A stretch of 51,030 bases of DNA from an uncultured Gammaproteobacteria bacterium (GTDB taxonomy: Bacteria > Patescibacteriota > Patescibacteriia > Magasanikbacterales > UBA922), in contig CAZEYK010000001.1 in the NCBI GenBank assembly GCA_964516055.1, positions 1 to 51,030 of the forward strand, read 5' to 3'. This document shows, piece after piece, positions 7,696-47,126 of the stretch. The first letter of the stretch is position 1. Each line of letters opens with the position of its first letter. Made by a program: the position numbers and the translations under genes. The notes under the pieces were generated by a model that made no database searches, was not told the origin of the DNA, and saw nothing but the letters and a program-made list of their open reading frames with translations.

Positions 7696-9087
7696 TTAAT
7701 TATTCGTAATTCCCAAAAACGGAGACCCCACCGCAATAAGCGAAAATCCTGCCTTTTGCAACTCATCATATCGATGCTGCAACATCCTTCGCCCATCCAT
7801 AATAAGTGCATTCTTTTCTGGAAGAGCCAAAAGTACCTCCGCAACCTGTCGAAACTGTGGCCAATCCGTCGCAATAATAACCACATCCGCATGCATCGTA
7901 GCAGAACGAATATCCGCCATGTACACCAGTTGCTCACTCGCCGGAAAATCCATTCCAAACATATCATTTGCCACAGGATCATACAATCGTACTTCCTTTA
8001 CCCGCTTCTCTTGCAAAAATCGCACAATATCAAGACTTGGACTATTGCGTGTATCATTGGTATCTTGCTTAAATGCAAGTCCCAAAAGCGCAACTGTTTT
8101 TCCTTGCCAGTCAAATCCAGCTTCCGTTTCTGGCCGAGACAAAAATAATTCTAGCTGCCGTTTATTAGCAAGATACGTTTCATTCACAAGCGAAGAAACT
8201 TTTCCCGCTGTTTGTAACTGATGAGAAAGCGATCGAGCATCCTTGATCAAACAACTTCCCCCAGCATACAAACTATTATAAAATCCCCAATTACTAATTC
8301 GTTTATCCGCGGTAATAATAGACCGAACGTTTTCAAAGGTCACATCATCAAATGCTTCACACGTTCTCCCAATCACATCAAAACATTGCGCAAGCTTACT
8401 AAACAAATAATAATTTGCGAGAAGTTTTCCTGCCGCGGCTTCCTTTGGACTCACTTCAAGATATCCAACCGTTGATGAAGTATAAAATCGATTATATATA
8501 TTTCGCATAATACCAAAATCTTGTTCAGATTCTGCTCCCACCACTACACGATCTGGACGAATAGATCCTTCAATTGCTTTTCCTTCAACCAAAAATTCTG
8601 GATTAGACACCACCCCAAAGTTTGTAACACCTGCTTTCATTAATAACTCTTTGGTCATATCAATCATATCAATGGGAACCGTACTTTTGTTGACAATAAC
8701 TACATATTTTTGTTGAGCACCACCATTCCGTTTGGCTAGTGCGACTGCCAATTGTTCTGCTGCTGCGGTATAATAGGTAAGATTACTTTCTCCTGTTTCC
8801 CCAATTTCTGGTGTTGGCAGACACATGAACACGGCATCACACGTATCAAGGAATGCAAAAACTTCTTGATAATCACTCGTAAAACGCAAATGGTCTGCAT
8901 GTTGAGCACACATTTCCGCAAGTTCCTTTTCATGCAAGTACGATTCAATACGTGTTTTATCAAGTGAAGCAAAGGCGGCTATTTTTTCTGTATCAATATC
9001 AAAAACAAGCGTGTTGTGCCCACTATCCGCAGACACCGCCGCACTACACGCCCCCACAAATCCGCCTCCAATATATAAGATATTCAT
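7696..9087 (-). CDS. ugd: UDP-glucose 6-dehydrogenase family protein
   Basis: MNILYIGGGFVGACSAAV NAD motif and catalytic motif GGSCLIKDARSL. Length is 463 aa with an ATG start. Confidence 0.8.
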   Translation of the reverse strand: MNILYIGGGFVGACSAAVSADSGHNTLVFDIDTEKIAAFASLDKTRIESYLHEKELAEMCAQHADHLRFTSDYQEVFAFLDTCDAVFMCLPTPEIGETGESNLTYYTAAAEQLAVALAKRNGGAQQKYVVIVNKSTVPIDMIDMTKELLMKAGVTNFGVVSNPEFLVEGKAIEGSIRPDRVVVGAESEQDFGIMRNIYNRFYTSSTVGYLEVSPKEAAAGKLLANYYLFSKLAQCFDVIGRTCEAFDDVTFENVRSIITADKRISNWGFYNSLYAGGSCLIKDARSLSHQLQTAGKVSSLVNETYLANKRQLELFLSRPETEAGFDWQGKTVALLGLAFKQDTNDTRNSPSLDIVRFLQEKRVKEVRLYDPVANDMFGMDFPASEQLVYMADIRSATMHADVVIIATDWPQFRQVAEVLLALPEKNALIMDGRRMLQHRYDELQKAGFSLIAVGSPFLGITNN

Positions 9088-9115
9088 ACTATCAAATAAT
9101 TACCTAGACAACACG

Positions 9116-9161
9116 GTCATCTCGAGTAACCTCGGCAACAGCCGGGGCATCGAGAGATCTC
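9116..9161. repeat. Degenerate half-copy related to the left arm of the 7397-7672 palindromic element
   Basis: GTCATCTCGAGTAACCTCGGCAACAGCCGGGGCATCGAGAGATCTC resembles GTCATCCTGAGCGTAAGG...GTCGAAGGATC at 7476-7525 in its start, end and length. Confidence 0.4.
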
Positions 9162-9373
9162 AATGTATTTATTAGTTATATTACTGAAATGAAATATACC
9201 CAAAAATTTCATGACTACCTAGCTCCAAAAGTGTACAGGAATCCTCTTTTTTTTTCAATAAAAACGAAAAACATAAAAAAAGGGGGCTTGGGGGCGGCGT
9301 CATGAAAAAATCACAAATATTCAATATTATGATAAAACCACACAAAACAATCGTCCGCCCCCAAAACTTTTTG

Positions 9374-9397
9374 TTCCTTTTTGGTTACAAAAAGGAA
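9374..9397. other. Perfect 10-bp stem-loop in a long non-coding region
   Basis: TTCCTTTTTG (9374-9383), loop GTTA, CAAAAAGGAA (9388-9397). Its role (terminator remnant or leader structure) is unknown. Confidence 0.5.
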
Positions 9398-9502
9398 ATA
9401 TACTCAATTTCCTAGCTAATCCCATAGTAGCGTAGAACTGTAGAATCACATTGTCACCTATAGCCTATCCTATCTAAATATTACCTATACCCACAAAACA
9501 AC

Positions 9503-9531
9503 TTGACAAGAACACAAAAAAAGACTATATT
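9503..9531 (+). promoter_or_regulatory. sigma70-like promoter facing the GC-rich island
   Basis: TTGACA (9503-9508), a 17-nt spacer, then TATATT (9526-9531). It lies in AT-rich DNA about 195 nt upstream of the kinase ATG. Confidence 0.55.
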
Positions 9532-9589
9532 GCCCTGTTATCTAAGATGCCTATTTTGTAGTTAACACAGCTAAAAAATATACACCTGG

Positions 9590-9626
9590 ATAGCAAAAAC
9601 CACTCAAAGAGTGGACATTTTGCTAT
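9590..9626. other. Nested 15-bp hairpin at the AT/GC transition (5' leader of the island operon)
   Basis: Outer stem ATAGCAAAA (9590-9598) / TTTTGCTAT (9618-9626). Inner stem CCACTC (9600-9605) / GAGTGG (9609-9614). Confidence 0.5.
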
Positions 9627-9726
9627 TCAACAGTCCTTTACAATTCAACACTACGAAAAAAAACACAGATCCATCGGCGTCAGCCAATGCGATCTATACC
9701 CGCCGCAATGCGGCAGGAGTGACACC

Positions 9727-11409
9727 ATGGCTGACAATACCAACAAGAACTATCGCTACATCGACAACGACCAGTTCGGAGGAAAGGTGCTCGAGCCTGG
9801 ATCCAAGATCCAGAACACGGACATCACCGTCCTCGACATCCTTGGCGCCGGCTCATTCGGCGTCGCCTACCTCTGCCAGAACAACGGGCAGGGACAGGTC
9901 GTCGTCAAGATGCTTCGGCAGAAGTTTCGTGGGGATTCTACCCATGTGAAACTGCTGATGCACGAGTGTGACATCGGCATCGGTTTAAAGAGCATCTCCC
10001 AGGTCGCCGGAGCATTTCAGTTCGGCGATCACGACGGCATGCGCTACATCGTGCTGCCGTACATCAAAGGTGAGACGCTCGAAAAGAAACTCCGGAATAA
10101 AAAAATGACGGAAACGGAGGATGTTGTGAGGTTCTTCTTGAGCTTCCTCGACGCAGTGCATCTCATGCACAGCGCCGAGTGCATCCACCGCGACCTGAAA
10201 CCGGAGAACATCATCGTCCGCGAGGAAGATGGTGCCGCGTGCATCATCGACCTCGGCACAGCAACCCATGTCGGGGAGAAAGAAGGTGACAACGTCTATA
10301 AGACCCAAGACGGGCAGGGCGGTGTACGCGGAACCCCCGTGTACATGTCTCAACTCCAATTCTCTCACAAGGCGGCATCCCCCAAAATGGACCTCTTCGC
10401 AATCAGCGTCATGCTGTTCGAGGCCATCACGGGAAAGATGCCCATCGAAGTACAAGAGGGAGATGCCTACACGGACGTCTACCGCAAGTACTTCCAACAA
10501 AAGCACTATGAGAGCCTGGATCAGCTCGTCAAGAATGACGCAAAGCTCTCCATGTTCTTCCAAGTGCTGAAAATGGGTTTCAAAAGCGGCGAGCTCGGCC
10601 CCGAAGAAGGGTCCTACTTCGCCAGCGCGGAGGAATTCCTCGACGCGCTGAAGAACATCTGCGAAGTCAACTTCCCCACCCTCTGGGCGGAGATCAGCCG
10701 CCAGGAGGCGAAGGAAAAAACAGGCATGATGAACATCGGCGACATCATCACCCAGATCGACGACAACAAAAGGACCAATCGTCCCAAGGTCGTCGACACG
10801 GCAGACACCATGCCACCCGCCGAGGTTCACCTTGCCGCGACGGCTGAGGCGATCGAAATCACCCTCCCCCCGGGTAAGGCTGGTTCTTTCGCCAAAATCA
10901 CCGTAGCGGTGGTAGGAGCACTCATGCTCCTCGCCGCCATCGCCCTTGGAGCCATCTGGCTCCTGAGCAACGACGAGGTCACCACCAACCCCAAAACAAT
11001 AAACACCGTGCAGCAAGAGGACAGCAGGGATGTCAACGAATATCCCGCTGAACTCGAACAGCCATCCTCTCCCGACGCAGAGTCCTCAGACGCGAGCACG
11101 CTCGCGGACAAGGCTCCGCAACAGGAGAAAGACATCGGTGTCAAAGATACAGGGGGGGAAGCAAAAGTCGAAGAAGACGCGTCCAAACAGGACGTCGTCG
11201 TCAAGACTGACACCTCGCCAAAGAAGCCACCAAAAGTCGTACCTCGTCGCCGTCGCACTCGCCCCCCAAAGGTCGAGGACAACAGCAACAACGGTGCAAA
11301 AACAGATACGCCACCCACCGAGAAAAAGAAGCCAAAAAGCTTCCTCACCAAACCGCCCAGCGGTACGGAGAAGAAGCCAAAAAGCTTTCTCAACGGAGGT
11401 GGCAAATGA
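9727..11409 (+). CDS. Hanks-type Ser/Thr protein kinase with one TM helix and a Lys/Pro-rich low-complexity tail
   Basis: AGGAG lies 7 nt upstream of the ATG. Kinase motifs: G-loop LGAGSFGVAY, VVKML lysine, catalytic loop HRDLKPENIIV, IIDLGTA (DFG-like), GTPVYMS. TM helix FAKITVAVVGALMLLAAIALGAIWLL. The tail carries a duplicated EKK(K)PKSFL. Third codon positions are strongly G/C. Confidence 0.9.
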   Translation: MADNTNKNYRYIDNDQFGGKVLEPGSKIQNTDITVLDILGAGSFGVAYLCQNNGQGQVVVKMLRQKFRGDSTHVKLLMHECDIGIGLKSISQVAGAFQFGDHDGMRYIVLPYIKGETLEKKLRNKKMTETEDVVRFFLSFLDAVHLMHSAECIHRDLKPENIIVREEDGAACIIDLGTATHVGEKEGDNVYKTQDGQGGVRGTPVYMSQLQFSHKAASPKMDLFAISVMLFEAITGKMPIEVQEGDAYTDVYRKYFQQKHYESLDQLVKNDAKLSMFFQVLKMGFKSGELGPEEGSYFASAEEFLDALKNICEVNFPTLWAEISRQEAKEKTGMMNIGDIITQIDDNKRTNRPKVVDTADTMPPAEVHLAATAEAIEITLPPGKAGSFAKITVAVVGALMLLAAIALGAIWLLSNDEVTTNPKTINTVQQEDSRDVNEYPAELEQPSSPDAESSDASTLADKAPQQEKDIGVKDTGGEAKVEEDASKQDVVVKTDTSPKKPPKVVPRRRRTRPPKVEDNSNNGAKTDTPPTEKKKPKSFLTKPPSGTEKKPKSFLNGGGK

Positions 11410-12422
11410 AGCAGGAGAACAAGAACATCATGAACAGAACCATGTCGTTCCTCGCTGCCACGCTCGTGGTGGTGGGGATGCTCCTGGGTTGGGGAAACCT
11501 GGCCCAGGCGCAGTCGGACGAAGTCCTCATCACCAAGGCCGAGCAGGCCATGGTAAAGAAGGACTACGTCCAAGCCATCGAGCTGTACACCCAGCTCTCC
11601 AACCGCAACAAGGACATGTCGGTGTACAAAGTCAACCTCGCGTTGGCCTACATGTCCATGAACGACGTCTGCTCGGGCCTCAAGTGGTTCGAGCAGGCGT
11701 CAAAAAACGAAGATCTGCCGCAAAGCGACGCGGCTGTCATCCAGACTGAATATCTGGAAGGATCATACGCCTGCCAAACCCTCACCGTGACCATCATCCC
11801 CCCTAAAAAGGGTGTGAAGCTCACGGTCGAAGGCAAGCTCGTCGCCACGACGGACAAAAACGGCAAAGCGACCATCGCCAAGCCGTTCACGTCCGTCGGT
11901 CAGATCACCCTTGTCGCCACCACCGACAACCGCACGGCGTCCACCACCGTGGACATCCCGTACGGTATCGGGGAAAAGTCCGTCACCATCACCCTGCCCA
12001 AGCCTACCAAAGGCAACGGCATCGTGTGGACCGACGACAAGAAGACTGATGAGGATGAGTTCGAAGTTGGCACCAAGCATCTCACCGTCATCGGCGTCGG
12101 GACCCTGTCCCTCGCGCTGGTGACAGGCGGCGTGTTCGCCAACATTTCGGCCGCGGGAAAATACGGAGAACTCGAGACCCTCGCGGGCAAACAAGCCCGT
12201 GGAGAGCTCAGGTCTCCCGCCGAAGCCGCGAAGCTTCAAGGGGAGCTCGACGACATGAACCAGTTGATGACAGCAATGTACATCAGCGGCGGCCTCCTGG
12301 CTGCCGCCGACGTCGCGCTGTTCTTCTACTGGGAAGCCGAGGAAACCAACAACAACACCCCCACCGTCACCATCACCCCCATGCGGGATGGTGGCACCGC
12401 GGTGTTCACCCTCCCCTTCTGA
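11406..12422 (+). CDS. Exported TPR-like / beta-sandwich (PEGA-like) protein with two C-terminal TM segments
   Basis: ATGA overlap with the kinase stop. Signal-like FLAATLVVVGMLLGWGNLAQA. TPR-like helix pair KAEQAMVKKDYVQAIELYTQL. Beta-rich segment TVTIIPPKKGVKLTVEGKLVATTDKNGKATI. TM segments LTVIGVGTLSLALVTGGVFANI and MYISGGLLAAADVALFFYW. Confidence 0.7.
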   Translation: MKQENKNIMNRTMSFLAATLVVVGMLLGWGNLAQAQSDEVLITKAEQAMVKKDYVQAIELYTQLSNRNKDMSVYKVNLALAYMSMNDVCSGLKWFEQASKNEDLPQSDAAVIQTEYLEGSYACQTLTVTIIPPKKGVKLTVEGKLVATTDKNGKATIAKPFTSVGQITLVATTDNRTASTTVDIPYGIGEKSVTITLPKPTKGNGIVWTDDKKTDEDEFEVGTKHLTVIGVGTLSLALVTGGVFANISAAGKYGELETLAGKQARGELRSPAEAAKLQGELDDMNQLMTAMYISGGLLAAADVALFFYWEAEETNNNTPTVTITPMRDGGTAVFTLPF

Positions 12423-12429
12423 AACAACA

Positions 12430-12448
12430 GGGGAGGCAACGCCTCCCC
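12430..12448 (+). other. GC-rich intercistronic hairpin
   Basis: GGGGAGGC (12430-12437), loop AAC, GCCTCCCC (12441-12448), with no following T-run. It lies between island genes 2 and 3. Confidence 0.45.
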
Positions 12449-12466
12449 CCAACAAGGAACACAATC

Positions 12467-14515
12467 ATGAAACAGTTCATCCATTTCCTGATGGGGATGG
12501 GGATGGCGATGCTATTCGTCGTCTCCGGCGGCTGTGAGAGCAGCCTCATCACCTGCGAAAAGAGCGCAGACTGCCCCGCGCACGCTTCGACGTGCTCCGA
12601 GGGCATCTGCATCACGCAGATCTCCATCGACAACGACACCGACGGCAACAACGACGGCAACAACGACAGCGATGTCGTCAACCCCGACGTCCCCGATACG
12701 GACAACGACACCTCCGACGCCGACGTCCCCCTGGACAACGGCTGCGGCGGTTCGGTGGAATTCCCAGAGGGTCAACGCCCAGGCGACCCCTGCGGCGAAA
12801 ACGACGAAGGGATGTGGGAGTGCGCCGGACAAAACGCCGTTCAGTGCAACGCCCCCAACCGCAACGCGTGTGGTGGCGAACAAGAGCTCAACGACGTACC
12901 CGGCACGATGTGCGGCGACGTGTGTCGCGATGGTTCACTCCGCTGCGACGAGGATGGTGAAAACCTCTTCTGCGCTGGCGAAAACGAGCCGTCAAATTGG
13001 TACCTCGACCTCGACGAAGACGAATACGGCGCGGGCGACCCCGCCGAGTTCTGTCCGAGTCAAGAAAGAGGTGCCTACACCGCCACTGTTGGCGGTGACT
13101 GCAACGACACGGACCCCGACGTCCACCCCGACGCCACCGAGATCTGCGACGGAATGGACAACAACTGCAACGGCGACTCTGACGAGCCGCTGAACGCCTG
13201 CGGGAGTTGTCAGGTCCTCCGCGGAGAGCCCGGCACCACTTGTGGTGAAGGACTCGATTGCGGATCAGGGACCTGGGAGTGCATGGGCGGCAACGTCCAG
13301 TGCACCCCCGGCGAGAACTCAGATCTCAACGCCTGCGGCGGATGCAGCACCCTCAGCCATGAGCCTGAAGAGGCTTGTGGTCAGTGCGGTGCCTACGCCT
13401 GCGACGGCGAAAACGCCACAATGTGCGTTGGCGCCGAGCCCAACAACGTTTGCGGCGGGTGCAACGCCCTGTCAAGCGACGTTGGCGCGCCCTGTGGCGC
13501 CTGCGGCGAGTATATCTGCAACGGTCGGGACGCTGTGCAATGCAGCGACCCCGGCCGCAATGCCTGTAATGGGTGTGGTGTTCTGGCTCATCAGCCCGCC
13601 ACGTCCTGTGACGAATGTGGGACCTACACCTGCAACGGCCCCAACACCGTCACCTGCAGCAACGACGTAGGCTTCAACGCCTGCGGCGTCTGCGACCGCA
13701 ACGGTGGTGTCTGCTGCGGCACAACCCTGTGCCCGCAGTCACCGCAAGGCTGGCCTGCGACCTGCAACGAAAAAGATCACTGCGAGTATGCTCCAGCCGA
13801 CGAGCTGGAGTTCTACAAAACGGTGATCTACGTTCCCCCCGGGAGCTTCCTCATGGGGGGACCCGAAGGAATTGAGAATGAAAAACCCGTACACGAGGTA
13901 ACATTCGTGCAAGGGTACTTCATTGCAAAGTTCGAGACCACCAGCGAGTGGTACGAACAATGCCCTCCATGCTTGGAGCAGCAGCGATCAATTGCCAACG
14001 GCAACGTTGGCAACTGGGGGCTCAACACCTCCAGCAACGGTCGCTCGCTCCACCCCGTCAACGGCGTCAACAAAAATGACGCCACCACCTTCTGTCTCTG
14101 GGCAGAAGGTCGACTCCCCACAGAAGCCGAATGGGAATTCGCCGCCACAGGAGAAAATCACAGGATCTACCCCTGGGGGGATGTTAATGGAACCTGCAAC
14201 CAGGCAATACTAACAATCTGTGGTTCCTTGGGGACCACAGAAGTGGGAACAGCAGCTGGGGGCGTCACCCCCAAAGGATGTCTCGACATGATCGGCAACG
14301 TAGCCGAACATGTAAGCGACGCCTACCACCCAACATATGAGGGTGCCCCAAATGACGGCACATCATGGGATGAGGGTGGAGAACCTGGAACCATAGTCAT
14401 CCGCGGCGGGGGGTATCACCAGGATACCCCCCGCATATCACACAGAGTAAGCTCGTTTAGTGACGAGCGAAACGCAATGACAGGATTCAGGTGTGTCTTC
14501 TTTGGCCTCCCCTAG
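12467..14515 (+). CDS. Lipoprotein with Asp/Asn-rich linker, ~6-7 Cys-rich repeats, a MopE-like metal-binding motif and a C-terminal FGE-sulfatase (SUMF1/PvdO/GldK-type) domain
   Basis: Lipobox-like MLFVVSGGC. Repeats of the form NACGGCxxLxxxPGxxCGxCGxYxCxGxxxVxC. MopE-like motif DCNDTDPDVHPDATEICDGMDNNCNGDSDE. C-terminal domain: YVPPGSFLMGG..EKPVHEVTF..LPTEAEWEFAA..IRGGGY..GFRCV (about 13820-14506). Confidence 0.85.
   Translation: MKQFIHFLMGMGMAMLFVVSGGCESSLITCEKSADCPAHASTCSEGICITQISIDNDTDGNNDGNNDSDVVNPDVPDTDNDTSDADVPLDNGCGGSVEFPEGQRPGDPCGENDEGMWECAGQNAVQCNAPNRNACGGEQELNDVPGTMCGDVCRDGSLRCDEDGENLFCAGENEPSNWYLDLDEDEYGAGDPAEFCPSQERGAYTATVGGDCNDTDPDVHPDATEICDGMDNNCNGDSDEPLNACGSCQVLRGEPGTTCGEGLDCGSGTWECMGGNVQCTPGENSDLNACGGCSTLSHEPEEACGQCGAYACDGENATMCVGAEPNNVCGGCNALSSDVGAPCGACGEYICNGRDAVQCSDPGRNACNGCGVLAHQPATSCDECGTYTCNGPNTVTCSNDVGFNACGVCDRNGGVCCGTTLCPQSPQGWPATCNEKDHCEYAPADELEFYKTVIYVPPGSFLMGGPEGIENEKPVHEVTFVQGYFIAKFETTSEWYEQCPPCLEQQRSIANGNVGNWGLNTSSNGRSLHPVNGVNKNDATTFCLWAEGRLPTEAEWEFAATGENHRIYPWGDVNGTCNQAILTICGSLGTTEVGTAAGGVTPKGCLDMIGNVAEHVSDAYHPTYEGAPNDGTSWDEGGEPGTIVIRGGGYHQDTPRISHRVSSFSDERNAMTGFRCVFFGLP
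12734..13726 (+). repeat. Coding tandem array of ~38-40-aa cysteine-rich repeats (Myxococcus-type disulfide repeat-like)
   Basis: Seven units, the last partial, each begin with N[AGV]C: NGCGGSVEF.., NACGGEQEL.., NACGSCQVL.., NACGGCSTL.., NVCGGCNAL.., NACNGCGVL.., NACGVCDRN... Confidence 0.75.
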
Positions 14516-14540
14516 AGCCTAGGGTTGAGGTCTTCCCCAT

Positions 14541-14565
14541 ACCCGACTGTATTCTGCAGTCGGGT
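14541..14565 (+). other. GC-rich 9-bp hairpin just after the island stop codon (possible donor-type terminator without U-tract)
   Basis: ACCCGACTG (14541-14549), 7-nt loop, CAGTCGGGT (14557-14565). Confidence 0.45.
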
Positions 14566-14569
14566 CATC

Positions 14570-14602
14570 AAAAAAGCATTGAATAATATTCAATGCTTTT
14601 TT
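14570..14602. terminator. AT-rich bidirectional intrinsic terminator between convergent units
   Basis: A6 (14570-14575), palindrome GCATTGAATA-A-TATTCAATGC (14576-14596), T6 (14597-14602). It lies between the island stop (14515) and the minus-strand stop (14638). Confidence 0.75.
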
Positions 14603-14637
14603 GTTTATTACTAAATTGTAAAATACAAAAAAATAAT

Positions 14638-15348
14638 TTACTGTTCCAATAGATGTTTCATTCGTGCTTCAGCCACAATCCAATCATCCTTACTATCAAT
14701 ATCTTGCGAATACACCGTATCCATTTCATATCCATACCGTCTTTTCCCCCACAAAGAACCTTCCAATAAATTATTAACCCGAAACGCATAAATGGCAGAA
14801 TTCACATAATATGTTATTGGTAAATCCTGATTTCTCTTAAAATTGGTGCATTCTGATTTTACAACAGGCATAACAATTTCATCACCAATGTTTTCTAATT
14901 GTTTCAAATAACTCATCCTACCAGGAACTCGAGAAATACCAACCAAAGAATCAATATCATCCCGTTCCTCAATAATTTGTTTTACCTCTTGAATATGAAA
15001 AGATTGTCTGCCTGGACAAGAAGGCTCTAATAAAATAATCCAATCAGCATAATACTTTCTATTTTCCCTCATCCAATTAACAGCATGAATGACGACATCT
15101 AGTGACGTCGCCATATCAGTAGCCAACTCTGCTGGTCTAATAAAAGGAACATCCACACCATGAGCTTTACCAATACTTGCAATTTCTTCATCATCAGTAG
15201 ACAAAATAAAATGATCGAAAACATTACTTTGTTTTCCAACATCAATACTCCAAACAAGCAATGGCTTACCCAAAAATTCTTTAATATTCTTCCTAGGTAA
15301 ACGCTTTGATCCACCACGGGCAGTAATAAGGCCTAATATTTTTTTCAT
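14638..15348 (-). CDS. CMP-nonulosonic acid synthetase (acylneuraminate cytidylyltransferase family), copy 1
   Basis: MKKILGLITARGGSKRLPRKNIK..GKPLL.WSI motif. It is clearly paralogous to 39404-40135, sharing FDHFILSTDD, VPFxRPAELATD and YYxNSAIYAFRV. The track ORF's 34-aa N-terminal extension overlaps the upstream gene, so ATG 15348 is preferred. Confidence 0.8.
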   Translation of the reverse strand: MKKILGLITARGGSKRLPRKNIKEFLGKPLLVWSIDVGKQSNVFDHFILSTDDEEIASIGKAHGVDVPFIRPAELATDMATSLDVVIHAVNWMRENRKYYADWIILLEPSCPGRQSFHIQEVKQIIEERDDIDSLVGISRVPGRMSYLKQLENIGDEIVMPVVKSECTNFKRNQDLPITYYVNSAIYAFRVNNLLEGSLWGKRRYGYEMDTVYSQDIDSKDDWIVAEARMKHLLEQ

Positions 15349-15355
15349 AAATAAA

Positions 15356-17323
15356 CTATATATGCAAACCACACTCATTATTACCCGTATCATGAAATCG
15401 TCCCTTTCTTTCTTCGTTAGCAACATCACTTTTTTTTGTACAAGGTTCACAACCTAAAGAAGTATATCCTTCATTATATAATGGATGATATGATAACTTA
15501 TACGTTCGTAAATATTCCCATACATCATCTTTTGTCCAAAATGCAATTGGATTATACTTTACAATATTTTCTGATTTTTCAATAATAGGAGTATATTGTC
15601 GTTGAACACTTTCATCACGACGTAATCCGGTAATCCATGCATCATACTTATCTAAAATGGGAACAATGGCAGGTTTTTTCATGGCACAACACATATACTG
15701 TCCTTCATGAATAAACGAATTTGCAAACGTACTTTTTATTTCAGAAATATCATCTTCAGTAGGACGAACCCACAAAAGATTCATATGAATTTCTTGCTCT
15801 AATTCTTTTGCAAAACGAAGTGTCTCTGGAAATTCATATCCAGTATCAATACTAACAAACAAAGCATCAGACTTAATTTGCATAACTAAATCAGCAATAA
15901 CTCGAGAATCCTTACCAAATGAACAAGCAACAAACAAATTTGGATGAACCAAAAATGCATGTTCAATAATTATTTTTGAAAGTTCTACCTTTTCTTCAAG
16001 AGTTATGTTTTTTTTAGGAACATCCAATAAAAGAGGTTCTTCTTGAATGTCAGGCAACATTTTTTTCTCTGATGGAGTAATAACCCCAGCAGCAACAGTA
16101 TCTCCTGTAACTTCATCAATTAATATAAAACTTCCCAATTTTTTATTCTTCTTGTATGAATCAAAAACAAATGGTTCATGAGTAGTAAAACGCACCTTAC
16201 CTATCTGATTAAGTTCCACTTGAGAGGCTTCTTGATATTCCCCATTCAAAACATCAATAACAGAAAAAACAGTATTAATAAAACAAAAAGTCTCCTTTGT
16301 CGTTTGTTTGATAATATATCTATTTTTCTTTACCGCAGGTTGTTTATTAAACCAAAACACCACAGCATCAATATTGTTAGAAACAATAGGTTCATTACCA
16401 ACACGCACCACAATATCCCCTCGACTGACATCAATTTGGTCAACAAAACTCATAACAGCAGCCTGTCCATTAAACGCATAACTCACATCTTCTTCTGCTA
16501 CAGAAATATGTTCAATAAAAGATTCAACACCTGATGGTAAAACTTTTATATTATCTCCAACAAGAAATACTCCTCCAGCGACAGTCCCTGCATACCCTCG
16601 AAAATCTTGATCAGGACGAACAACATATTGCACAGGAAAACGAGCATCCACCATATTACGGGAAGAGATAACAGGAACATCATGAATATATTCAAGTACT
16701 GTCTGACCAAAATACCATAACAAATTATTGCCACGAGTAGCAACCATATCACCTTTTAAAGCAGAAACCGGAATAAACTGAATATTTTTTATACCAATAT
16801 TTCTCGTAAACAATTGAACATCATCCCTTATGTTTTCAAAAACACCTTGATCATATGACACCATATCCATTTTATTCACAACAACTGCGACATGGGGAAT
16901 ATTCAATAAAGAAAGGACAAAAAAATGACGTCTTGTTTGCACAGTCATTCCTTTTCTTGCGTCAATCACAATCAATGCAACTTGAGAATGAGAAGCACCT
17001 GTAACCATATTTCTTGTATATTCTTCATGACCAGGAACATCGGCAATAATAAACGTTCTTTGATTAGAAGAAAAATATCTATATGCTACATCAATAGTAA
17101 TTTTTTGTTCTCGCTCAGCTTCAAGACCATCTGTAAAAAGTGAATAATCAAGTTCATCCTCAATGTGTTCAGTATTTTCAACAGCTTGTATTTGATCTTC
17201 ATACACATTACCCGTATCATAAAGAAGCCTTCCTATTAAAGTTGATTTTCCATCATCTACACTTCCAGCAATAACAAGAGTAAGTAATTCCATGTTTCGA
17301 TTGTATTTACGTTTATTCTCCAT
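15356..17323 (-). CDS. cysN: Fusion: sulfate adenylyltransferase subunit 1 (CysN GTPase) + Fe-S type APS/PAPS reductase (CysH family)
   Basis: CysN part (aa 1-417): GSVDDGKSTLIGRLL, DVPGHEEY, NKMD. CysH part (aa ~441-655, nt 16003-15359): PP-loop-like ACSFGKDS, the Cys pair QYMCCAMKKP, GCEPCT, and the C-terminal ECGLH motif. Confidence 0.85.
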   Translation of the reverse strand: MENKRKYNRNMELLTLVIAGSVDDGKSTLIGRLLYDTGNVYEDQIQAVENTEHIEDELDYSLFTDGLEAEREQKITIDVAYRYFSSNQRTFIIADVPGHEEYTRNMVTGASHSQVALIVIDARKGMTVQTRRHFFVLSLLNIPHVAVVVNKMDMVSYDQGVFENIRDDVQLFTRNIGIKNIQFIPVSALKGDMVATRGNNLLWYFGQTVLEYIHDVPVISSRNMVDARFPVQYVVRPDQDFRGYAGTVAGGVFLVGDNIKVLPSGVESFIEHISVAEEDVSYAFNGQAAVMSFVDQIDVSRGDIVVRVGNEPIVSNNIDAVVFWFNKQPAVKKNRYIIKQTTKETFCFINTVFSVIDVLNGEYQEASQVELNQIGKVRFTTHEPFVFDSYKKNKKLGSFILIDEVTGDTVAAGVITPSEKKMLPDIQEEPLLLDVPKKNITLEEKVELSKIIIEHAFLVHPNLFVACSFGKDSRVIADLVMQIKSDALFVSIDTGYEFPETLRFAKELEQEIHMNLLWVRPTEDDISEIKSTFANSFIHEGQYMCCAMKKPAIVPILDKYDAWITGLRRDESVQRQYTPIIEKSENIVKYNPIAFWTKDDVWEYLRTYKLSYHPLYNEGYTSLGCEPCTKKSDVANEERKGRFHDTGNNECGLHI

Positions 17324-17326
17324 ACA

Positions 17327-18235
17327 CTAAAAATAGCCTTGTTTTTTTTTATGTTCCATTGAAGTGTCAGATGTTTTATCAATTGCCCTATTACTTCTTT
17401 CGGACTGTTTTGCTTCCAAAACTTCACAAAGGATTTCCTCAACTGTTTTTGCACATGACAATACGGCACCAGTAGAAGGTGAACACCCTAAAGTTCGATA
17501 ACGAGCTTCTGCTTCTATAACTTCTTCCCCTTCTCGAGCAATCACATAATTGTCCAACGCATAAAAACTATTATTGCGCTTCACCAATTTTCTTTTCTCG
17601 GCAAAATAGAGTGAGACAACTTCAATCTTTTCTTGAAGAATATACGCCCAGATATCGGCTTCAGTCCAATTAGACAATGGAAAAACGCGCATACTCTGTC
17701 CATTCTGTAATTGAGTATTGTATAAATTCCATAACTCAGGTCTTTGTAATTTTGGATTCCAACCACTGTGTTCATTACGAACAGAAAAAATACGTTCTTT
17801 TGCACGAGATTTTTCTTCTTCACGTCTAGCGCCACCAATTGCGGCATCAAAACGATACCTTTCAAGAGCGTCAAGTAAAGGCTTCGTTTTTTTATGATAA
17901 ATATAATTATCAGTATGTGCATCATTCGGACCAAAAGACAAAGCCTCCAAAGAATCATTTTTTTCAACAATCAGTTGCACACCAATTTTATCTATATAAT
18001 AATCACGAAATTCAATCATCTCTCTAAATTTAAACCCTGTGTCAACGTGCAAAAGAGGAAAAGGAATCTTTCCTGGGAAAAAAGCCTTTTGTGCTAAACG
18101 TAACAAAACTGAAGAATCCTTACCAATAGAATAAAGAAGGACAGGACGACGAAATGTCGCAGCGACCTCACGAAAAATATAAATACTTTCTGCTTCAAGC
18201 TGCTTAAGCGATGATAATTGATATTTTTCCCCCAT
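17327..18235 (-). CDS. cysD: Sulfate adenylyltransferase subunit 2
   Basis: LKQLEAESIYIFREVAA..PVLLYSIGKDSSVLLRLA PP-loop. Length is 302 aa. It ends 3 nt before the cysN fusion start. Confidence 0.85.
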   Translation of the reverse strand: MGEKYQLSSLKQLEAESIYIFREVAATFRRPVLLYSIGKDSSVLLRLAQKAFFPGKIPFPLLHVDTGFKFREMIEFRDYYIDKIGVQLIVEKNDSLEALSFGPNDAHTDNYIYHKKTKPLLDALERYRFDAAIGGARREEEKSRAKERIFSVRNEHSGWNPKLQRPELWNLYNTQLQNGQSMRVFPLSNWTEADIWAYILQEKIEVVSLYFAEKRKLVKRNNSFYALDNYVIAREGEEVIEAEARYRTLGCSPSTGAVLSCAKTVEEILCEVLEAKQSERSNRAIDKTSDTSMEHKKKQGYF

Positions 18236-18275
18236 AAAAAAACTTTTTTAGATACTAATTTTTAAAAAATTCTTA

Positions 18276-19301
18276 CTAATATAAATCTTCAATAAGAACC
18301 AAAGTATCCTCTTCAATAAATTTTTTAACCTTTTTTCCTAATACTTTATGAACATACCCCGTAGCAAGGCCCTTACCAGGTCGCTTAAATACGATATCAC
18401 TCCTTTCAAGAACTTTACCAACGGGGATATCCTTAGCAGCCACAATACTTTGACTTGCCCATCCCCTTGCAGCAATTATATGATCAACACGATTGGAACT
18501 TGCAGGAAGAATAGATGCTTCAACATCACGAATTTGTTTAACCATTTGCTTTAAATCTTCAGGATCACATGAAACAGGACAATCAAATGATCTTTTATCT
18601 GTTTTATCAAAAGAAAGATGTTTTTCAATAAGTTTTGCACCAAGCGCAACAGCCGCAATAGGAATATGTAAACCAATAGTATGATCGGAATATCCAATAG
18701 GACAATCTAATTGATTCTTTAACTGAGTAATAGTTCCCAAACTATTTATATCAACAGGAGTAGGATAAATAGTATTGCAATGCAACGCGACAATATCAAT
18801 GAGTCCCTCAGATTCCATAATAGAAAGAGAATTATGAATTTCTTCAACCGATTTATGGAGACCAAAAGAAACAATAACAGGCTTACCCCGAGAAGCAACA
18901 TTACGCAAAAAATCATTATTAATACTTTCTCCAGAACCAATCTTAAAAAATGGAATATCTAAATCTTTATCAATAAATTCTAAATCAACTTCCGTATGAG
19001 AAGTAACAAAAAAATCGATATTACGAATTTCACAATATTCCTTCAACATTCGTAAATCATTATATGAAAGTTCTTTATACTTTAATCGACTATACCAATA
19101 AGGATCTACCTTTTTTGAAACAAGTGCTTCCGTCGTTTGTGCTTGAAACTTAATAGCATCAGCACCAGCAGCCATAGCAGCATCTACCTGCCTCTTTGCA
19201 AGTGCAATGTCACCCCAATTTGTTAAACCTCCTTCTGCAACGATGTAGACAGGATATTCTTCACCGATGAAACCGTTACCAATACGTACTTTATTATTCA
19301 T
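18276..19301 (-). CDS. NeuB-family nonulosonic acid synthase (divergent), copy 1
   Basis: YIVAEGGLTNWGDIALAKRQVDAAMAAGADAIKFQ, compared with canonical IAEIGxNHNG. Metal-ligand contexts ALHCNTIYPTP and GYSDHTIG. C-terminal SAF-like IVAAKDIPVGKVLERSDIVFKRPGKG. Confidence 0.75.
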   Translation of the reverse strand: MNNKVRIGNGFIGEEYPVYIVAEGGLTNWGDIALAKRQVDAAMAAGADAIKFQAQTTEALVSKKVDPYWYSRLKYKELSYNDLRMLKEYCEIRNIDFFVTSHTEVDLEFIDKDLDIPFFKIGSGESINNDFLRNVASRGKPVIVSFGLHKSVEEIHNSLSIMESEGLIDIVALHCNTIYPTPVDINSLGTITQLKNQLDCPIGYSDHTIGLHIPIAAVALGAKLIEKHLSFDKTDKRSFDCPVSCDPEDLKQMVKQIRDVEASILPASSNRVDHIIAARGWASQSIVAAKDIPVGKVLERSDIVFKRPGKGLATGYVHKVLGKKVKKFIEEDTLVLIEDLY

Positions 19302-19334
19302 AAAATAATAATTTATTTAAGAATTAAAAAATAC

Positions 19335-20492
19335 CTATACTGATTGTTCCCACTTCACTTTTGGCATAATAGTATCTTTATCAATATTATCCTTATATTC
19401 AATAATCTTTTTCAACATACTGTCCACCAAAACGTCAGACAATTTTTGTGGTTTCAAGCCAAGATCAATGAATTTCGTATGAACAGGATTAAAATAATGT
19501 GTTTCCATCTCCTTTCGAGGATTTTCAATATTCATTATTTTCACATCAAGACCAAATTTCTTCCCTGATTCTTGAACAAGCATTGCAAGCTGATTAATTG
19601 AAAATGTTTCAGTAAACTGATTATAAATTTTAAATTCACCAGGCTCAGAAGGGTTAAGGACAGCAAGTTCAACACACTGCAATGTATCAAGAATATTCAA
19701 AAATGCACGTTTTTGTTCCCCTTTTCCATAAGGAGTAATAGGAAGACCTGCAATAGCTTGCACACAAAAACGATTTAATGCCGTACCAAAAATTTCATCA
19801 TAATGAAAACTGGTACATAATTTTTCATGAAATAGTGTTTCTTCCGTTTCAATACCATAAACAACACCTTGGTTTAAATCAGTTGCCCTAAGATTCCAGG
19901 TATTAACAGCAAAATAAATATTATTACTATCATGTACTTTTGAAAGATGATAAAAAGAACCTGGTCTTTTTGGAAATAACACACGATCTTTTCTTCCTTT
20001 ATGTTCTACATCAAGATATCCTTCTTCAATATCAATATTTGGTGTTCCATATTCTCCCATGGTACCAAGTTTAACCAAATGTGCATGTGGACAATGTTTT
20101 TTTATAGCAAATAAAACATTTAAATTTCCAATAACATTATTTGTTTGAGTAATAATAGCCTGTTCATTTCCACTCATGGAAAATGGCGCGGAAGGTTGTT
20201 CTCCATAATGGACAATGGCATCCGGTCTAAAATCCTCAAAAACTTTATGAACAAAACGAGTATTCACCAAATCGCCAACATACATTTTTATATCTTTCCC
20301 TGTCACGTCTTTCCACACACGAATACGCTCATGAAGCGTAGCAACTTCAGGTAATGGTTTAATTCCCATTTCCATTTCCCACTTTCTTTTATTGAAGTTA
20401 TCTAACACAGCAACCTCATACCCTTTTCGAGAAAAGTACATTGCAGTAGGCCAACCAAGGTACCCATCTCCTCCCAAAATCAAAATCTTCAT
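19335..20492 (-). CDS. sqdB: UDP-sulfoquinovose synthase
   Basis: Long near-identical blocks match the SQD1/SqdB sequence as I recall it. They are ILGGDGYLGW, LVKLGTMGEYGTPNIDIEEGY, SFYHLSKVHDS (Tyr/His/Lys catalytic context), ATDLNQGVVYG and FGTALNRFCVQA. Confidence 0.88.
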   Translation of the reverse strand: MKILILGGDGYLGWPTAMYFSRKGYEVAVLDNFNKRKWEMEMGIKPLPEVATLHERIRVWKDVTGKDIKMYVGDLVNTRFVHKVFEDFRPDAIVHYGEQPSAPFSMSGNEQAIITQTNNVIGNLNVLFAIKKHCPHAHLVKLGTMGEYGTPNIDIEEGYLDVEHKGRKDRVLFPKRPGSFYHLSKVHDSNNIYFAVNTWNLRATDLNQGVVYGIETEETLFHEKLCTSFHYDEIFGTALNRFCVQAIAGLPITPYGKGEQKRAFLNILDTLQCVELAVLNPSEPGEFKIYNQFTETFSINQLAMLVQESGKKFGLDVKIMNIENPRKEMETHYFNPVHTKFIDLGLKPQKLSDVLVDSMLKKIIEYKDNIDKDTIMPKVKWEQSV

Positions 20493-21433
20493 ACAATATT
20501 TGTTAATTTAGAATATTCTTCTTTAAAATAAATAAGTGTTTTATTAATACCATCTTCAAGTGTCACTTCCGGTTTCCAATTTAATTCTTTTTGTGTAACG
20601 CTGTTATCAAGGCAACTTCTCAAAATTTCACCAAGCAATGCCTCGCCATTATGTACGTGTACTGAAACATCAAGTTTTTGAGCAATAACCTGAAATAATT
20701 TATTTACACTACACTCCTTTCCAGTACTAACATTGTAAGTATTCAATGTATTTCCATTTTGTTCACCAGCAAGAACATTCACTCTTGCAATATCTTCCAC
20801 ATAAATAAAATCCCGAGTTTGCTCTCCACTACCATTGATCACAGGGGTAACACCTTCAAGTAAATTTTTAATAAATACAGCAACTACACCACCTTCTCCC
20901 TTCCTATCTTGCCTCGGACCATAAACATTGCTATATCTCAAGATGGTAACCGGCATGCCATAAACAGTATTATAATAATATAAATACTGTTCACCCGCCA
21001 ACTTATCAATACCATATGGAGAAATTGGTTTTGTCGAATGATCAAGTGTCGTTGGAAGCTGATCAGTATTCCCATATAATGCTCCTCCTGTAGAAGAAAA
21101 GACAAAACGCGAAATATTATATTTTCGTGCATATTCCAACAAATTCACCATTCCATGAACATTATTATAGATATCATTAAGTGGATCATTCACAGATTTT
21201 CTTACATTTGTAGCAGCAGCGAGATGACAAACAACATCAATCCTTTCATGAAAAAAAATATCCGATAAATCATCCGCAATATTCCGTCTATATATTGGAA
21301 CTCCTTTGGGAATATTATAATCTTTCCCAGTGCTAAAATCATCCAATACGATAGGATAATGACCGCTAACAATAAATTGTTCAACAACATGTGAGCCAAT
21401 AAAACCAGCACCACCAGTAACTAAAATACGCAT
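20489..21433 (-). CDS. NAD-dependent sugar-nucleotide 4-epimerase (GalE-like)
   Basis: MRILVTGGAGFIGSHV and the YxxxK motif in SPYGIDKLAGEQY. ATGA overlap with the sqdB start. Confidence 0.75.
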   Translation of the reverse strand: MRILVTGGAGFIGSHVVEQFIVSGHYPIVLDDFSTGKDYNIPKGVPIYRRNIADDLSDIFFHERIDVVCHLAAATNVRKSVNDPLNDIYNNVHGMVNLLEYARKYNISRFVFSSTGGALYGNTDQLPTTLDHSTKPISPYGIDKLAGEQYLYYYNTVYGMPVTILRYSNVYGPRQDRKGEGGVVAVFIKNLLEGVTPVINGSGEQTRDFIYVEDIARVNVLAGEQNGNTLNTYNVSTGKECSVNKLFQVIAQKLDVSVHVHNGEALLGEILRSCLDNSVTQKELNWKPEVTLEDGINKTLIYFKEEYSKLTNIV

Positions 21434-21523: not shown

Positions 21524-22660
21524 TTAATACGTAATTTTTTTCATCAATAGGTCATCATCAACATCAATATTCCGAATAATTTCATAAATTTTTTTCCCTG
21601 CTGTACCATCACCAAATATATAATTATTAACAATTTTATTACGAAATTCATAGCTTGTTGCTTTATCAATAGCCTCAAGAATATCTTCTTTAACAGGATT
21701 ACAAGAAATAACGTTCACATCCCGGACCCTTCCTTCTTGACGTTTTCCAACAGTAACACTCGGCAAACCAAAATAAGGAGTTTCAATAAGACCTGAACTT
21801 GAATTACCAATAAAAAATGACGCGCCATCCATCAACCCCCAAAAATCTAAAGCATCTATATTTTTATGTACAGAAAAATACGGAACAGTACGAAACTCAT
21901 CAAGTGCACGTAAAGTTCCTTGATAACCTTGGTCACTACAGGGGTAAATCACGAGCGTCCGTATCCCATAATCCCTAAGAGCACCATATACAGATAAAGC
22001 TTCATCATATGACGCACATTCTTTCAAGGTCATAGGATGTTGAATACAAATGGCATAAGGCTCTTCTTCACCAATAGCATACATACGACGAACATCCCGA
22101 TTATTAGTAAATCTTCCTTGCATAACAAAATCAATATATGTAGCACCAACAGTATGTACCCGATGAGATTCTTCACCGAGTTTCAAAATACGATCAGCAC
22201 TATCCGCAGATGAAGGAAAATGTAGATGAGAAAGTTTAGTAATAGCATGAATTCTATTTCCATCCCTATTTCCAGCGACATCACCACCAAGAATATGTGC
22301 AACTGGAATATTTAACTCCATAGCCGCAATAGTAGCTGAAAGAACCTCTCCCCTATCACCCAAAGTAATCAATATATCTGGACGTGCTTCACTAAGCACA
22401 TCCACCATACGAGAAACAAATAGACCCAACGCCCGTCCACGCTCAACAGCCGAATCATCTTTCTGACCAAATACAACCTTATATGAAATAGGAAAAAATC
22501 GTTCAACTTCTTTTGCAGTATAGCCAAATATATTTGACAGATGCATATCTGTCACAATTAATTGCAATTCCATCAAAGGATCATTCTGGATCATCTCCAT
22601 TAACCCAATCATGGCCCCAAACCCGCCTCGTTTACCACTCAATACAGCGACCTTTTTCAT
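21524..22660 (-). CDS. Hydrolysing UDP-N-acetylglucosamine 2-epimerase (NeuC family), copy 1
   Basis: MKKVAVLSGKRGGFG, LGDRGEVLSATIAAMELNIPVAHILGGDV, HAITKLSHLHFPS. Confidence 0.8.
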   Translation of the reverse strand: MKKVAVLSGKRGGFGAMIGLMEMIQNDPLMELQLIVTDMHLSNIFGYTAKEVERFFPISYKVVFGQKDDSAVERGRALGLFVSRMVDVLSEARPDILITLGDRGEVLSATIAAMELNIPVAHILGGDVAGNRDGNRIHAITKLSHLHFPSSADSADRILKLGEESHRVHTVGATYIDFVMQGRFTNNRDVRRMYAIGEEEPYAICIQHPMTLKECASYDEALSVYGALRDYGIRTLVIYPCSDQGYQGTLRALDEFRTVPYFSVHKNIDALDFWGLMDGASFFIGNSSSGLIETPYFGLPSVTVGKRQEGRVRDVNVISCNPVKEDILEAIDKATSYEFRNKIVNNYIFGDGTAGKKIYEIIRNIDVDDDLLMKKITY

Positions 22661-27426: not shown

Positions 27427-27439
27427 ACAACAATAAATA

Positions 27440-47055: not shown

Positions 47056-47126
47056 AATGTTATGGAAACACACGCAGAAAATTTTCTTAATGATAAATAA
47101 CAAAAAGTTAATATCCCCTATAAAAA

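Follow-up and report, generated by a model that had tools for sequence, protein, structure and literature searches.

A rare CysN-CysH fusion in a Patescibacteria glycan locus and its predicted role in sulfite supply

The sequence examined here, hereafter the window, is a stretch of 51,030 nucleotides from contig CAZEYK010000001.1 of assembly GCA_964516055.1, the host being a tiny groundwater bacterium, Candidatus Magasanikbacteria. Its minus strand carries a gene, designated cysN~cysH, in which the GTPase subunit of ATP sulfurylase (CysN) is joined in frame to a sulfonucleotide reductase (CysH). The gene is preceded by cysD, which encodes the catalytic subunit of ATP sulfurylase, and lies in a run of sugar-nucleotide genes that includes a homologue of the uridine diphosphate (UDP)-sulfoquinovose synthase SQD1 (Table 1). 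An initial annotation, made from the DNA letters and their translations, had proposed that an unusual fusion is present, in which an iron-sulfur reductase would convert adenosine 5'-phosphosulfate (APS) directly to sulfite and bypass 3'-phosphoadenosine 5'-phosphosulfate (PAPS).

Table 1. Positions of the fusion gene, its domains and predicted functional residues, and neighbouring genes in the window.
Feature	Position	Strand	Basis or remark
Whole fusion gene cysN~cysH	15356..17323	-	655 aa + stop; one reading frame, Pfam and NCBIfam matches
CysN moiety, residues 1-416	16076..17323	-	GTPase G domain and EF-Tu-like domains II and III
Linker, residues 417-440 (TPSEKKMLPDIQEEPLLLDVPKKN)	16004..16075	-	A7 and A8 runs; length and sequence vary among fusion lineages
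CysH (sulfonucleotide reductase) moiety, residues 441-655	15359..16003	-	Pfam, NCBIfam, structure alignments
Cys545-Cys546, first two predicted [4Fe-4S] ligands	15686..15691	-	In register with CC of 7LHR and 2GOY
Cys625-x-x-Cys628 (GCEPCT), predicted [4Fe-4S] ligands 3 and 4	15440..15451	-	Structure alignments, motif scan
ECGLH, residues 650-654; Cys651 predicted catalytic nucleophile of the C-terminal tail	15362..15376	-	Alignments, motif scan
cysD, catalytic ATP sulfurylase subunit, 302 aa	17327..18235	-	TIGR02039 426.9 bits (cutoff 396.6), NF003587
NeuB2, divergent NeuB-family protein (nonulosonate synthase-like)	18276..19301	-	Pfam NeuB and SAF; under NCBIfam NeuB/PseI cutoffs
SQD1 / UDP-sulfoquinovose synthase homologue, predicted sulfite consumer	19335..20492	-	1QRR match
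Cytidylyltransferase (CTP_transf_3) of cytidine monophosphate (CMP)-sugar type	14638..15348	-	PseF-like, 150 bits, under cutoff
GalE-like epimerase	20489..21433	-	Recurrent in SQD1/CysH module
NeuC-type hydrolysing UDP-sugar 2-epimerase	21524..22660	-	TIGR03568 327 bits (cutoff 236); recurrent in SQD1/CysH module
Ser/Thr kinase	9727-11409	+	In high-GC island
Tetratricopeptide repeat (TPR)-like protein	11406-12422	+	In high-GC island
MopE-motif and FGE-sulfatase-domain protein	12467-14515	+	In high-GC island

One reading frame encoding CysN and CysH

The gene was returned by the program that lists open reading frames (ORFs) as one ORF with an ATG start and no internal stops, and domains of both families were detected in its product by Pfam and NCBIfam, indicating that the proposed fusion is genuine. 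The protein carries a complete CysN GTPase and a complete CysH-type sulfonucleotide reductase. In the N-terminal half, Pfam placed GTP_EFTU at residues 13-200 (E 1e-42) and GTP-eEF1A_C at residues 318-416, and the NCBIfam CysN model TIGR02034 was matched end to end (residues 14-415 against model positions 1-406 of 406) with 481.9 bits against a cutoff of 336.1; the score for the stricter CysN equivalog NF003478, 511.5 bits, falls under its cutoff of 590. The GTPase motifs are intact (G1, GSVDDGKS, residues 20-27; G3, DVPGH, residues 95-99; G4, NKMD, residues 150-153) and are kept in the alignment of all fusion lineages. Comparison with CysN from the Pseudomonas syringae CysD:CysN complex (1ZUN_B) gave a phmmer E-value of 1e-116 for the CysN moiety and, for the AlphaFold model of the fusion, a Foldseek TM score of 0.84. 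Foldseek matches were mostly to CysN and EF-1A, and added nothing on the CysH half.

The C-terminal half was matched by the Pfam family PAPS_reduct (PF01507) at residues 463-630 (E 2e-44, 152 bits against a cutoff of 22.5). All of the motifs quoted in the initial annotation were located, namely SFGKDS at residues 468-473, CCAMK at 545-549 (as YMCCAMK), GCEPCT at 624-629 and the terminal ECGLH at 650-654. Among curated CysH models only NF002537, phosphoadenylyl-sulfate reductase, was passed (190.2 bits, cutoff 154, residues 447-655), the score for TIGR00434 being slightly under cutoff (154.8 against 165.1 bits). When compared with proteins of known structure, the C-terminal 226 aa matched CysH of Mycobacterium tuberculosis (7LHR; E 1e-30, 110 bits), APS reductase of Pseudomonas aeruginosa (2GOY; E 4e-25, 92 bits) and PAPS reductase of Escherichia coli (2O8V; E 6e-25). 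Non-reductase PP-loop proteins were far weaker matches (CysD, 32 bits; FAD synthase, 28 bits), which contradicts the possibility, raised in the initial annotation, that the domain might align better with PP-loop ATPases of that kind.

The four cysteines put forward as iron-sulfur ligands are likewise present and in register with those of known APS reductases, the CC and CxxC pairs sharing HMMER alignment columns with 7LHR (ECCRLRK, GCAPCT) and 2GOY (ECCGIRK, GCEPCT). The PAPS reductases of E. coli (2O8V/1SUR) and Vibrio have no cysteines at these columns, and the terminal ECGLH is common to the window protein, 7LHR, 2GOY and 2O8V. Reductases that contain an iron-sulfur cluster form the APS-using class, PAPS reductases being without it (PMC2275785, Background). 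The CysH moiety is predicted to bind a [4Fe-4S] cluster on Cys545, Cys546, Cys625 and Cys628, and would, on the same alignments, be expected to prefer APS over PAPS.

The two domains, both modelled with confidence in the full-length AlphaFold prediction (predicted local distance difference test, pLDDT, of 93-98 for CysH), are joined by a linker of ~24 aa that is poorly conserved among lineages in the alignment and has a pLDDT < 50 at residues 420-437. The CysH moiety begins I-T-L-E-E-K-V-E-L-S-K, the N-terminus of standalone relatives being M-x-L-x-E-K-V-E-L-S-K; from residue 438 onwards the sequence of the fusion is K-K-N-I-T-L-E-E-K-V-E-L-S-K, and its codon at the site of the standalone ATG is ATA. 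Since the fusion aligns with the standalone N-terminus, an entire CysH ORF is joined to the end of CysN (GAGVI, ~residue 415). Within the linker there is also an ATG in frame (Met423, 16057-16055), with a purine-rich stretch before it, in addition to the A7 and A8 runs, and internal initiation or slippage at these sites could in principle give separate products as well.

Authenticity, rarity and origin of the fusion

At least 21 independently assembled contigs (ENA, JGI, NCBI GCA_002773155.1 and Logan) encode this 655-aa product without any change, and an identical protein from a Candidatus Magasanikbacteria metagenome-assembled genome (MAG) is deposited as PIR77470.1 / UniRef100_A0A2M6P210. 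The sequence is already public, then, under an automatic name only, 'phosphoadenylyl-sulfate reductase', which conceals the CysN half and probably names the wrong substrate. At the DNA level, window positions 8000-21000 were matched gap-free at 100% identity in independent ENA and JGI assemblies (L035, L040, L041 and others). Five more full-length fusion lineages were recovered (P0002, P0003/P0393, P0121, P0394 and P0395), which are 47-52% identical, comprise 647-664 aa, and all keep CC, CxxC and ECG[LI]H; their linkers differ.

These data bear directly on whether adjacent cysN and cysH genes have been merged artificially, either by an indel in the A7 and A8 runs, which do lie in the linker, or by a chimeric join. 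A short JGI contig (L028; 3300025139, Ga0210021_1058063; 1927 bp) is identical to window positions 17527-15973, covering the end of CysD, CysN and the linker, and past position 15973 continues into an unrelated Trans_reg_C-like tail, giving a 523-aa protein (P0001) that serves as a cluster representative. Although this departure could be taken to favour a merger, L028 itself carries the CysN-linker junction unchanged and is most likely the short-contig chimera, because the window sequence beyond the breakpoint stays homologous to all relatives. The junction at 16000-16075, singled out in the initial annotation, has no stop or frameshift, the same DNA and protein recurring in independent assemblies from different samples despite the homopolymer runs. 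With five diverged lineages sharing the in-frame architecture and having different linkers, an artefact can scarcely be credited and was dropped as an explanation. Neither did the fusion arise by loss of a stop codon from the one gene order seen in unfused loci, cysH-cysD-cysN (L003, L004, L027, L031, L050 and L070), in which cysH does not follow cysN; the order in fused loci is cysD-cysN~cysH, and these are therefore rearranged relative to the unfused ones.

The rarity of the architecture was assessed by running HMMER exhaustively against 1.84 billion representative proteins and listing the best 150 matches. Only four of these best 150 cover both halves (P0121, P0167, P0254 and P0126), the others being CysN or CysNC; P0121 is full length, whereas P0167 and P0254 are fragments whose clusters hold the full-length P0394 and P0395. 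The APS kinase domain PF01583 is present in most of the top 120 matches among the nearest relatives, bearing out the statement in the initial annotation that APS kinase is the usual fusion partner of CysN. A profile of the C-terminal domain, on the other hand, returned > 5,000 proteins at E <= 1e-20, the top 120 of which comprise 118 standalone CysH proteins (mostly 216-241 aa) and 2 junction-spanning fragments. CC and CxxC are present in all 118 of these standalone subfamily members, and ECGLH in 117. With the same profile, none of the 25 loci returned from 185,579 species-representative genomes (GTDB) was fused, and a scan of JGI metagenomes gave 46 loci, one of them fused (L049). The standalone subfamily is found mainly in Patescibacteria (Saccharibacteria, Magasanik-, Falkow-, Kaiser-, Sung- and Parcubacteria, and Microgenomates), and also in some Acidobacteriota and Gammaproteobacteria MAGs. 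On these counts the fusion is best described as a rare derivative of a common standalone CysH subfamily.

In a neighbour-joining tree of CysH, the fused domains group with three standalone proteins in a small clade and are strictly monophyletic in 12 of 100 bootstraps. The fused CysN domains are dispersed through a star-like tree of CysNC and CysN relatives (monophyly in 0 of 100), and in its CysN half the window protein is as near to CysNC proteins (57% identity) as to the other fusions (46-52%). These identities would fit a swapping of the C-terminal module, for which the support is too weak to claim. Full-text literature searches turned up no account of either a CysN-CysH fusion or a CysH-SQD1-NeuB module, and nothing relevant on sulfoquinovose in Patescibacteria, also termed the candidate phyla radiation (CPR), or on sulfonated nonulosonic acids; only Patron et al. 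(2008) was relevant overall.

Gene neighbourhood and proposed role

All genes from position 14638 to past 50 kb lie on the minus strand, and their products are enzymes of sugar-nucleotide and glycan metabolism. Among the ORFs of 150 aa or longer that were scanned in the window, none was found to encode an APS kinase, a sulfite reductase, a cysteine synthase or a sulfotransferase. The order of transcription around the fusion is NeuC-type 2-epimerase, GalE-like epimerase, SQD1 homologue, NeuB2, CysD, CysN~CysH and cytidylyltransferase. The stop codon of cysD, a gene that stands immediately upstream in every fusion locus, is 3 nt before the start codon of the fusion, and the likely ATG of the cytidylyltransferase, at 15348, is 8 nt past its stop. 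The SQD1 homologue aligns over its full length with Arabidopsis SQD1 (1QRR; E 7e-154, residues 2-383 against 3-384), and both KLGTMGEYGTPNIDIEEGY and the active-site segment SFYHLSKVHDS, within the Thr...Tyr-His-x-x-Lys catalytic region, are identical to 1QRR; on the equivalog model NF041015 it scores 463.2 bits, under the cutoff of 575. UDP-glucose and sulfite are the substrates from which SQD1 and Agl3 form UDP-sulfoquinovose (PMC4388408).

The association of the fusion with SQD1 recurs elsewhere. The order SQD1-NeuB2-CysD-fusion is found in the window, in L001 (P0002) and in L047/L048 (P0395); L002 (P0003) begins at NeuB2, and in L045 (P0394) SQD1 is 5.7 kb upstream. Orthologues of NeuB2, 55-61% identical, adjoin SQD1 in L001, L019, L021, L026, L027, L031 and L047. 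Standalone CysH likewise has an SQD1 gene no more than 5 kb away in 15 of the 23 genome loci and 16 of the 24 metagenome loci that were informative, the two being directly adjacent in 12 and 14 loci, respectively, and the unfused order extends to cysH-cysD-cysN-SQD1-NeuB2 in L004, L027, L031 and L050.

Some of these loci have further genes of possible relevance. A TauE/SafE-family anion permease (L001, 12049-12762) and a 277-aa protein without a Pfam match (L045, 12019-12852; L047, 13863-14696) are encoded after or near the fusion and might serve to take up sulfate or to handle sulfite; neither gene has a counterpart at that position in the window. In the region 10001-20609 of a 1.03-Mb contig (L031, ENA ERZ26692762), an unfused cysH-cysD-cysN-SQD1-NeuB run is followed directly by genes for a sulfotransferase, an APS kinase, a 946-aa PK/PUA/ATP-sulfurylase/APS-kinase protein and a CysQ-like phosphatase, so that this one small genome seems to have a sulfite branch next to a PAPS branch.

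Because an SQD1 homologue and a glycan locus adjoin the fusion, the genes are read here as a sulfonation-precursor module as opposed to a system for assimilatory sulfate reduction. Specifically, CysD and CysN~CysH are proposed, with a probability of roughly 70%, to form a self-contained sulfate-to-sulfite module that feeds SQD1 within a nonulosonic-acid and glycan locus, the sulfite most likely being made for a sulfonated cell-surface sugar and not for cysteine. CysD would adenylate sulfate to APS, driven by GTP hydrolysis on the CysN moiety; GTP-driven APS synthesis is established for CysDN (structure 1ZUN). The CysH moiety, with its predicted [4Fe-4S] cluster and tethered by the flexible linker, would then take up APS, which would be attacked by Cys651 of the ECGLH tail to give an enzyme S-sulfocysteine, from which thioredoxin or glutaredoxin would free sulfite. 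This mechanism is established for the APS reductases of P. aeruginosa and M. tuberculosis, and is extended by homology to CysN~CysH. The SQD1 homologue, encoded two genes upstream, would use the sulfite without its reduction to sulfide, and would provide the surface-glycan pathway of the locus with either UDP-sulfoquinovose or a closely related sulfonated UDP-sugar. The reaction catalysed by ATP sulfurylase is unfavourable and product-inhibited, and the fusion would set an APS consumer 1:1 beside the APS source, pulling the sulfurylase reaction as APS kinase does in CysNC. APS may also be channelled within the fusion.

Several observations weigh against this proposal, either as a whole or in part. 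The full-length structural model has a predicted TM score (pTM) of only 0.54 and offers no defined CysN-CysH interface through which channelling might occur. No thioredoxin or glutaredoxin gene was seen adjoining the module, and SQD1 was not seen at one fused locus (L029, encoding P0121), on a contig of 8 kb. A sulfite reductase may also be encoded elsewhere in the genome, the scan for one having covered the window only. As regards the substrate, the CysH moiety scores 150.6 bits on the NCBIfam APS_reductase model TIGR02055, under the cutoff of 235.3; the CysH subfamily is divergent from the seed set of this model. Moreover, the iron-sulfur motif is no strict marker of APS specificity, since the cluster-bearing CysH of Bacillus subtilis accepts PAPS as well as APS, and a moss enzyme, APR-B, that has no cluster is still able to reduce APS.

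Some of these points favour a reading in which a genuine fusion takes part in ordinary assimilatory sulfate reduction, with sulfite passing to sulfite reductase and on to cysteine, and with the glycan locus being incidental. CysD, CysN and CysH are, after all, the canonical assimilatory enzymes, and several Acidobacteriota loci with the same CysH subfamily (L012, L013, L017 and L018), like L029, are without a nearby SQD1. This reading is nonetheless considered unlikely, given that neither sulfite reductase nor cysteine synthase was found among the ORFs scanned in the 51 kb, that the fusion is tightly spaced with its same-strand neighbours in a run of sugar-nucleotide genes, that the SQD1-NeuB2-CysD-fusion order is kept over ~50% protein divergence, and that about two thirds of the informative subfamily loci have SQD1 within 5 kb. 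Patescibacteria are mostly without amino-acid biosynthesis, which also counts against an assimilatory function.

A different objection is that the CysH moiety might reduce PAPS, or both nucleotides, with PAPS being provided by an APS kinase encoded elsewhere and so not bypassed. The curated models lean this way, the PAPS reductase equivalog NF002537 having been passed and TIGR02055 failed, and some relatives sit with CysNC (L003, P0026) or near an APS kinase (L031). However, the four iron-sulfur cysteines are those of APS reductases, absent from the PAPS reductases of E. coli and Vibrio; no APS kinase domain is encoded in the window, the kinase usually attached to CysN being the very part that is replaced here; and the L031 kinase is grouped with a sulfotransferase and a separate Sat-type sulfurylase, in what looks like a parallel branch. 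Reduction of PAPS is thus regarded as improbable. There is precedent, too, for degenerate sulfate-pathway domains acting as regulators, as with the APS-kinase-like domain of fungal ATP sulfurylase (PMC2275785), and the CysH moiety could by analogy be a non-catalytic sensor of nucleotides. Retention of SFGKDS, DTGYEF, CC, GLRRDE, CxxC and ECGLH in six of six fusion lineages and in 117 of 118 standalone relatives makes this very improbable.

The sulfite-supply module may also have a more specific destination. Because SQD1, the NeuC-type 2-epimerase, a NeuB paralogue under cutoff and a cytidylyltransferase form a conserved module, it is conceivable that the fusion supplies the sulfite arm of an undescribed Patescibacteria pathway to a carbon-sulfonated nonulosonic acid. 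SQD1 would put sulfite on UDP-hexose or UDP-N-acetylhexosamine, the 2-epimerase would free a 6-deoxy-6-sulfo-manno sugar, the divergent NeuB2 would condense this with phosphoenolpyruvate to a 9-deoxy-9-sulfo nonulosonate, and the adjacent cytidylyltransferase would activate the product with CMP for display at the cell surface. As a reading of gene content this extension is tentative and, on balance, doubtful. Should the sulfite-supply reading itself be true, genome-reduced CPR bacteria retain sulfate activation and reduction for a sulfonated sugar and not for cysteine, which points to sulfoquinovose-type or novel sulfonated sugars on their cell surfaces.

Other parts of the window were also considered. 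The locus contains three NeuB paralogues (18276-19301, 26368-27468 and 38341-39399), four Epimerase_2 genes and four CTP_transf_3 genes; the NCBIfam NeuB cutoff is passed by the paralogue at 26368-27468 only, those at 18276-19301 and 38341-39399 being divergent, and with this gene complement the locus may encode as many as three nonulosonic-acid pathways. An ORF of 929 aa (42460-45249, minus strand) combines a MobA-like nucleotidyltransferase, a 3-dehydroquinate-synthase-like cyclase and an APH-type kinase, and its neighbours (45259-46278 and 46285-47103) encode an ADH_N dehydrogenase and a CDP-alcohol phosphatidyltransferase; together these may form a pathway to a nucleotide-activated cyclitol or sugar-phosphate head group. 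Within the minus-strand glycan locus, which has a guanine plus cytosine (GC) content of 30-40%, lies a 4.8-kb plus-strand island with sharp borders (9700-14500, 55-65% GC). Both borders were found at 100% identity in three independent assemblies (L035, L040 and L041), ruling out a chimeric join; other contigs end at an island border (L042 and L043) or inside the island (L037-L039 and L044). The island appears to be a genuine foreign insertion, acquired recently and possibly variable among strains.

Comparison with known systems

The CysH moiety resembles the standalone [4Fe-4S] APS reductases 2GOY and 7LHR in fold and in having CC...CxxC and the C-terminal ECGLH in register. Those enzymes are free-standing homo-oligomers of cysteine biosynthesis, whereas the window CysH is tethered to CysN and forms part of a separate subfamily (SFGKDSR, YKCCAMK), one mostly associated with SQD1. 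The unfused Patescibacteria modules (L027, from Falkowbacteria; L031; L050; and L003, from Magasanikiibacteriota and with CysNC) have the same enzymes and neighbours, with identities to the window of 57-61% for CysH, 64-69% for CysD and 70-75% for SQD1. They differ in that the enzymes are three polypeptides and in that cysH is upstream of cysD as opposed to downstream of cysN. A protein of 652 aa, P0126 (L030, Logan SRR30303680), also joins CysN to PF01507 and has CysD encoded upstream; its C-terminal domain, however, is 26% identical and is without CC, CxxC and SFGKDS, although ECGLH is kept, and P0126 probably arose independently, by fusion to a PAPS-reductase-like domain that has no cluster.

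In the dinoflagellate Heterocapsa triquetra, ATP sulfurylase is fused to APS reductase, and rapid channelling of APS into reduction has been proposed (Patron et al. 2008, PMC2275785). A sulfate-activating enzyme is joined to an APS reductase in both cases. The Heterocapsa partner, though, is a homo-oligomeric, catalytic Sat-type ATP sulfurylase of a eukaryotic assimilatory pathway, whereas the window fusion uses the non-catalytic GTPase subunit of a heteromeric bacterial enzyme, in a CPR bacterium and a glycan locus.

A further comparison is with CysNC/NodQ-type proteins (e.g. CysNC of M. tuberculosis; NF004035), which likewise have an N-terminal CysN, a separately encoded CysD, and an APS consumer fused at the same C-terminal boundary, where the GAGVI strand ends near residue 416; in its CysN part, the window protein has Patescibacteria CysNC proteins as its nearest relatives (50-57% identity). 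The window protein, by contrast, has no match to PF01583 and scores 541.6 bits on NF004035 against a cutoff of 715, over model positions 17-435 of 632 only, and is assigned by its profile matches to the CysN and CysH families and not to CysNC. In place of a P-loop APS kinase it appends an iron-sulfur reductase of the PAPS_reduct fold, the predicted product being sulfite as opposed to PAPS. As a Rosetta-stone fusion, it indicates that CysDN can be wired straight to reduction rather than to phosphorylation, and it offers a ready system in which APS channelling could be tested against the well-studied CysNC.

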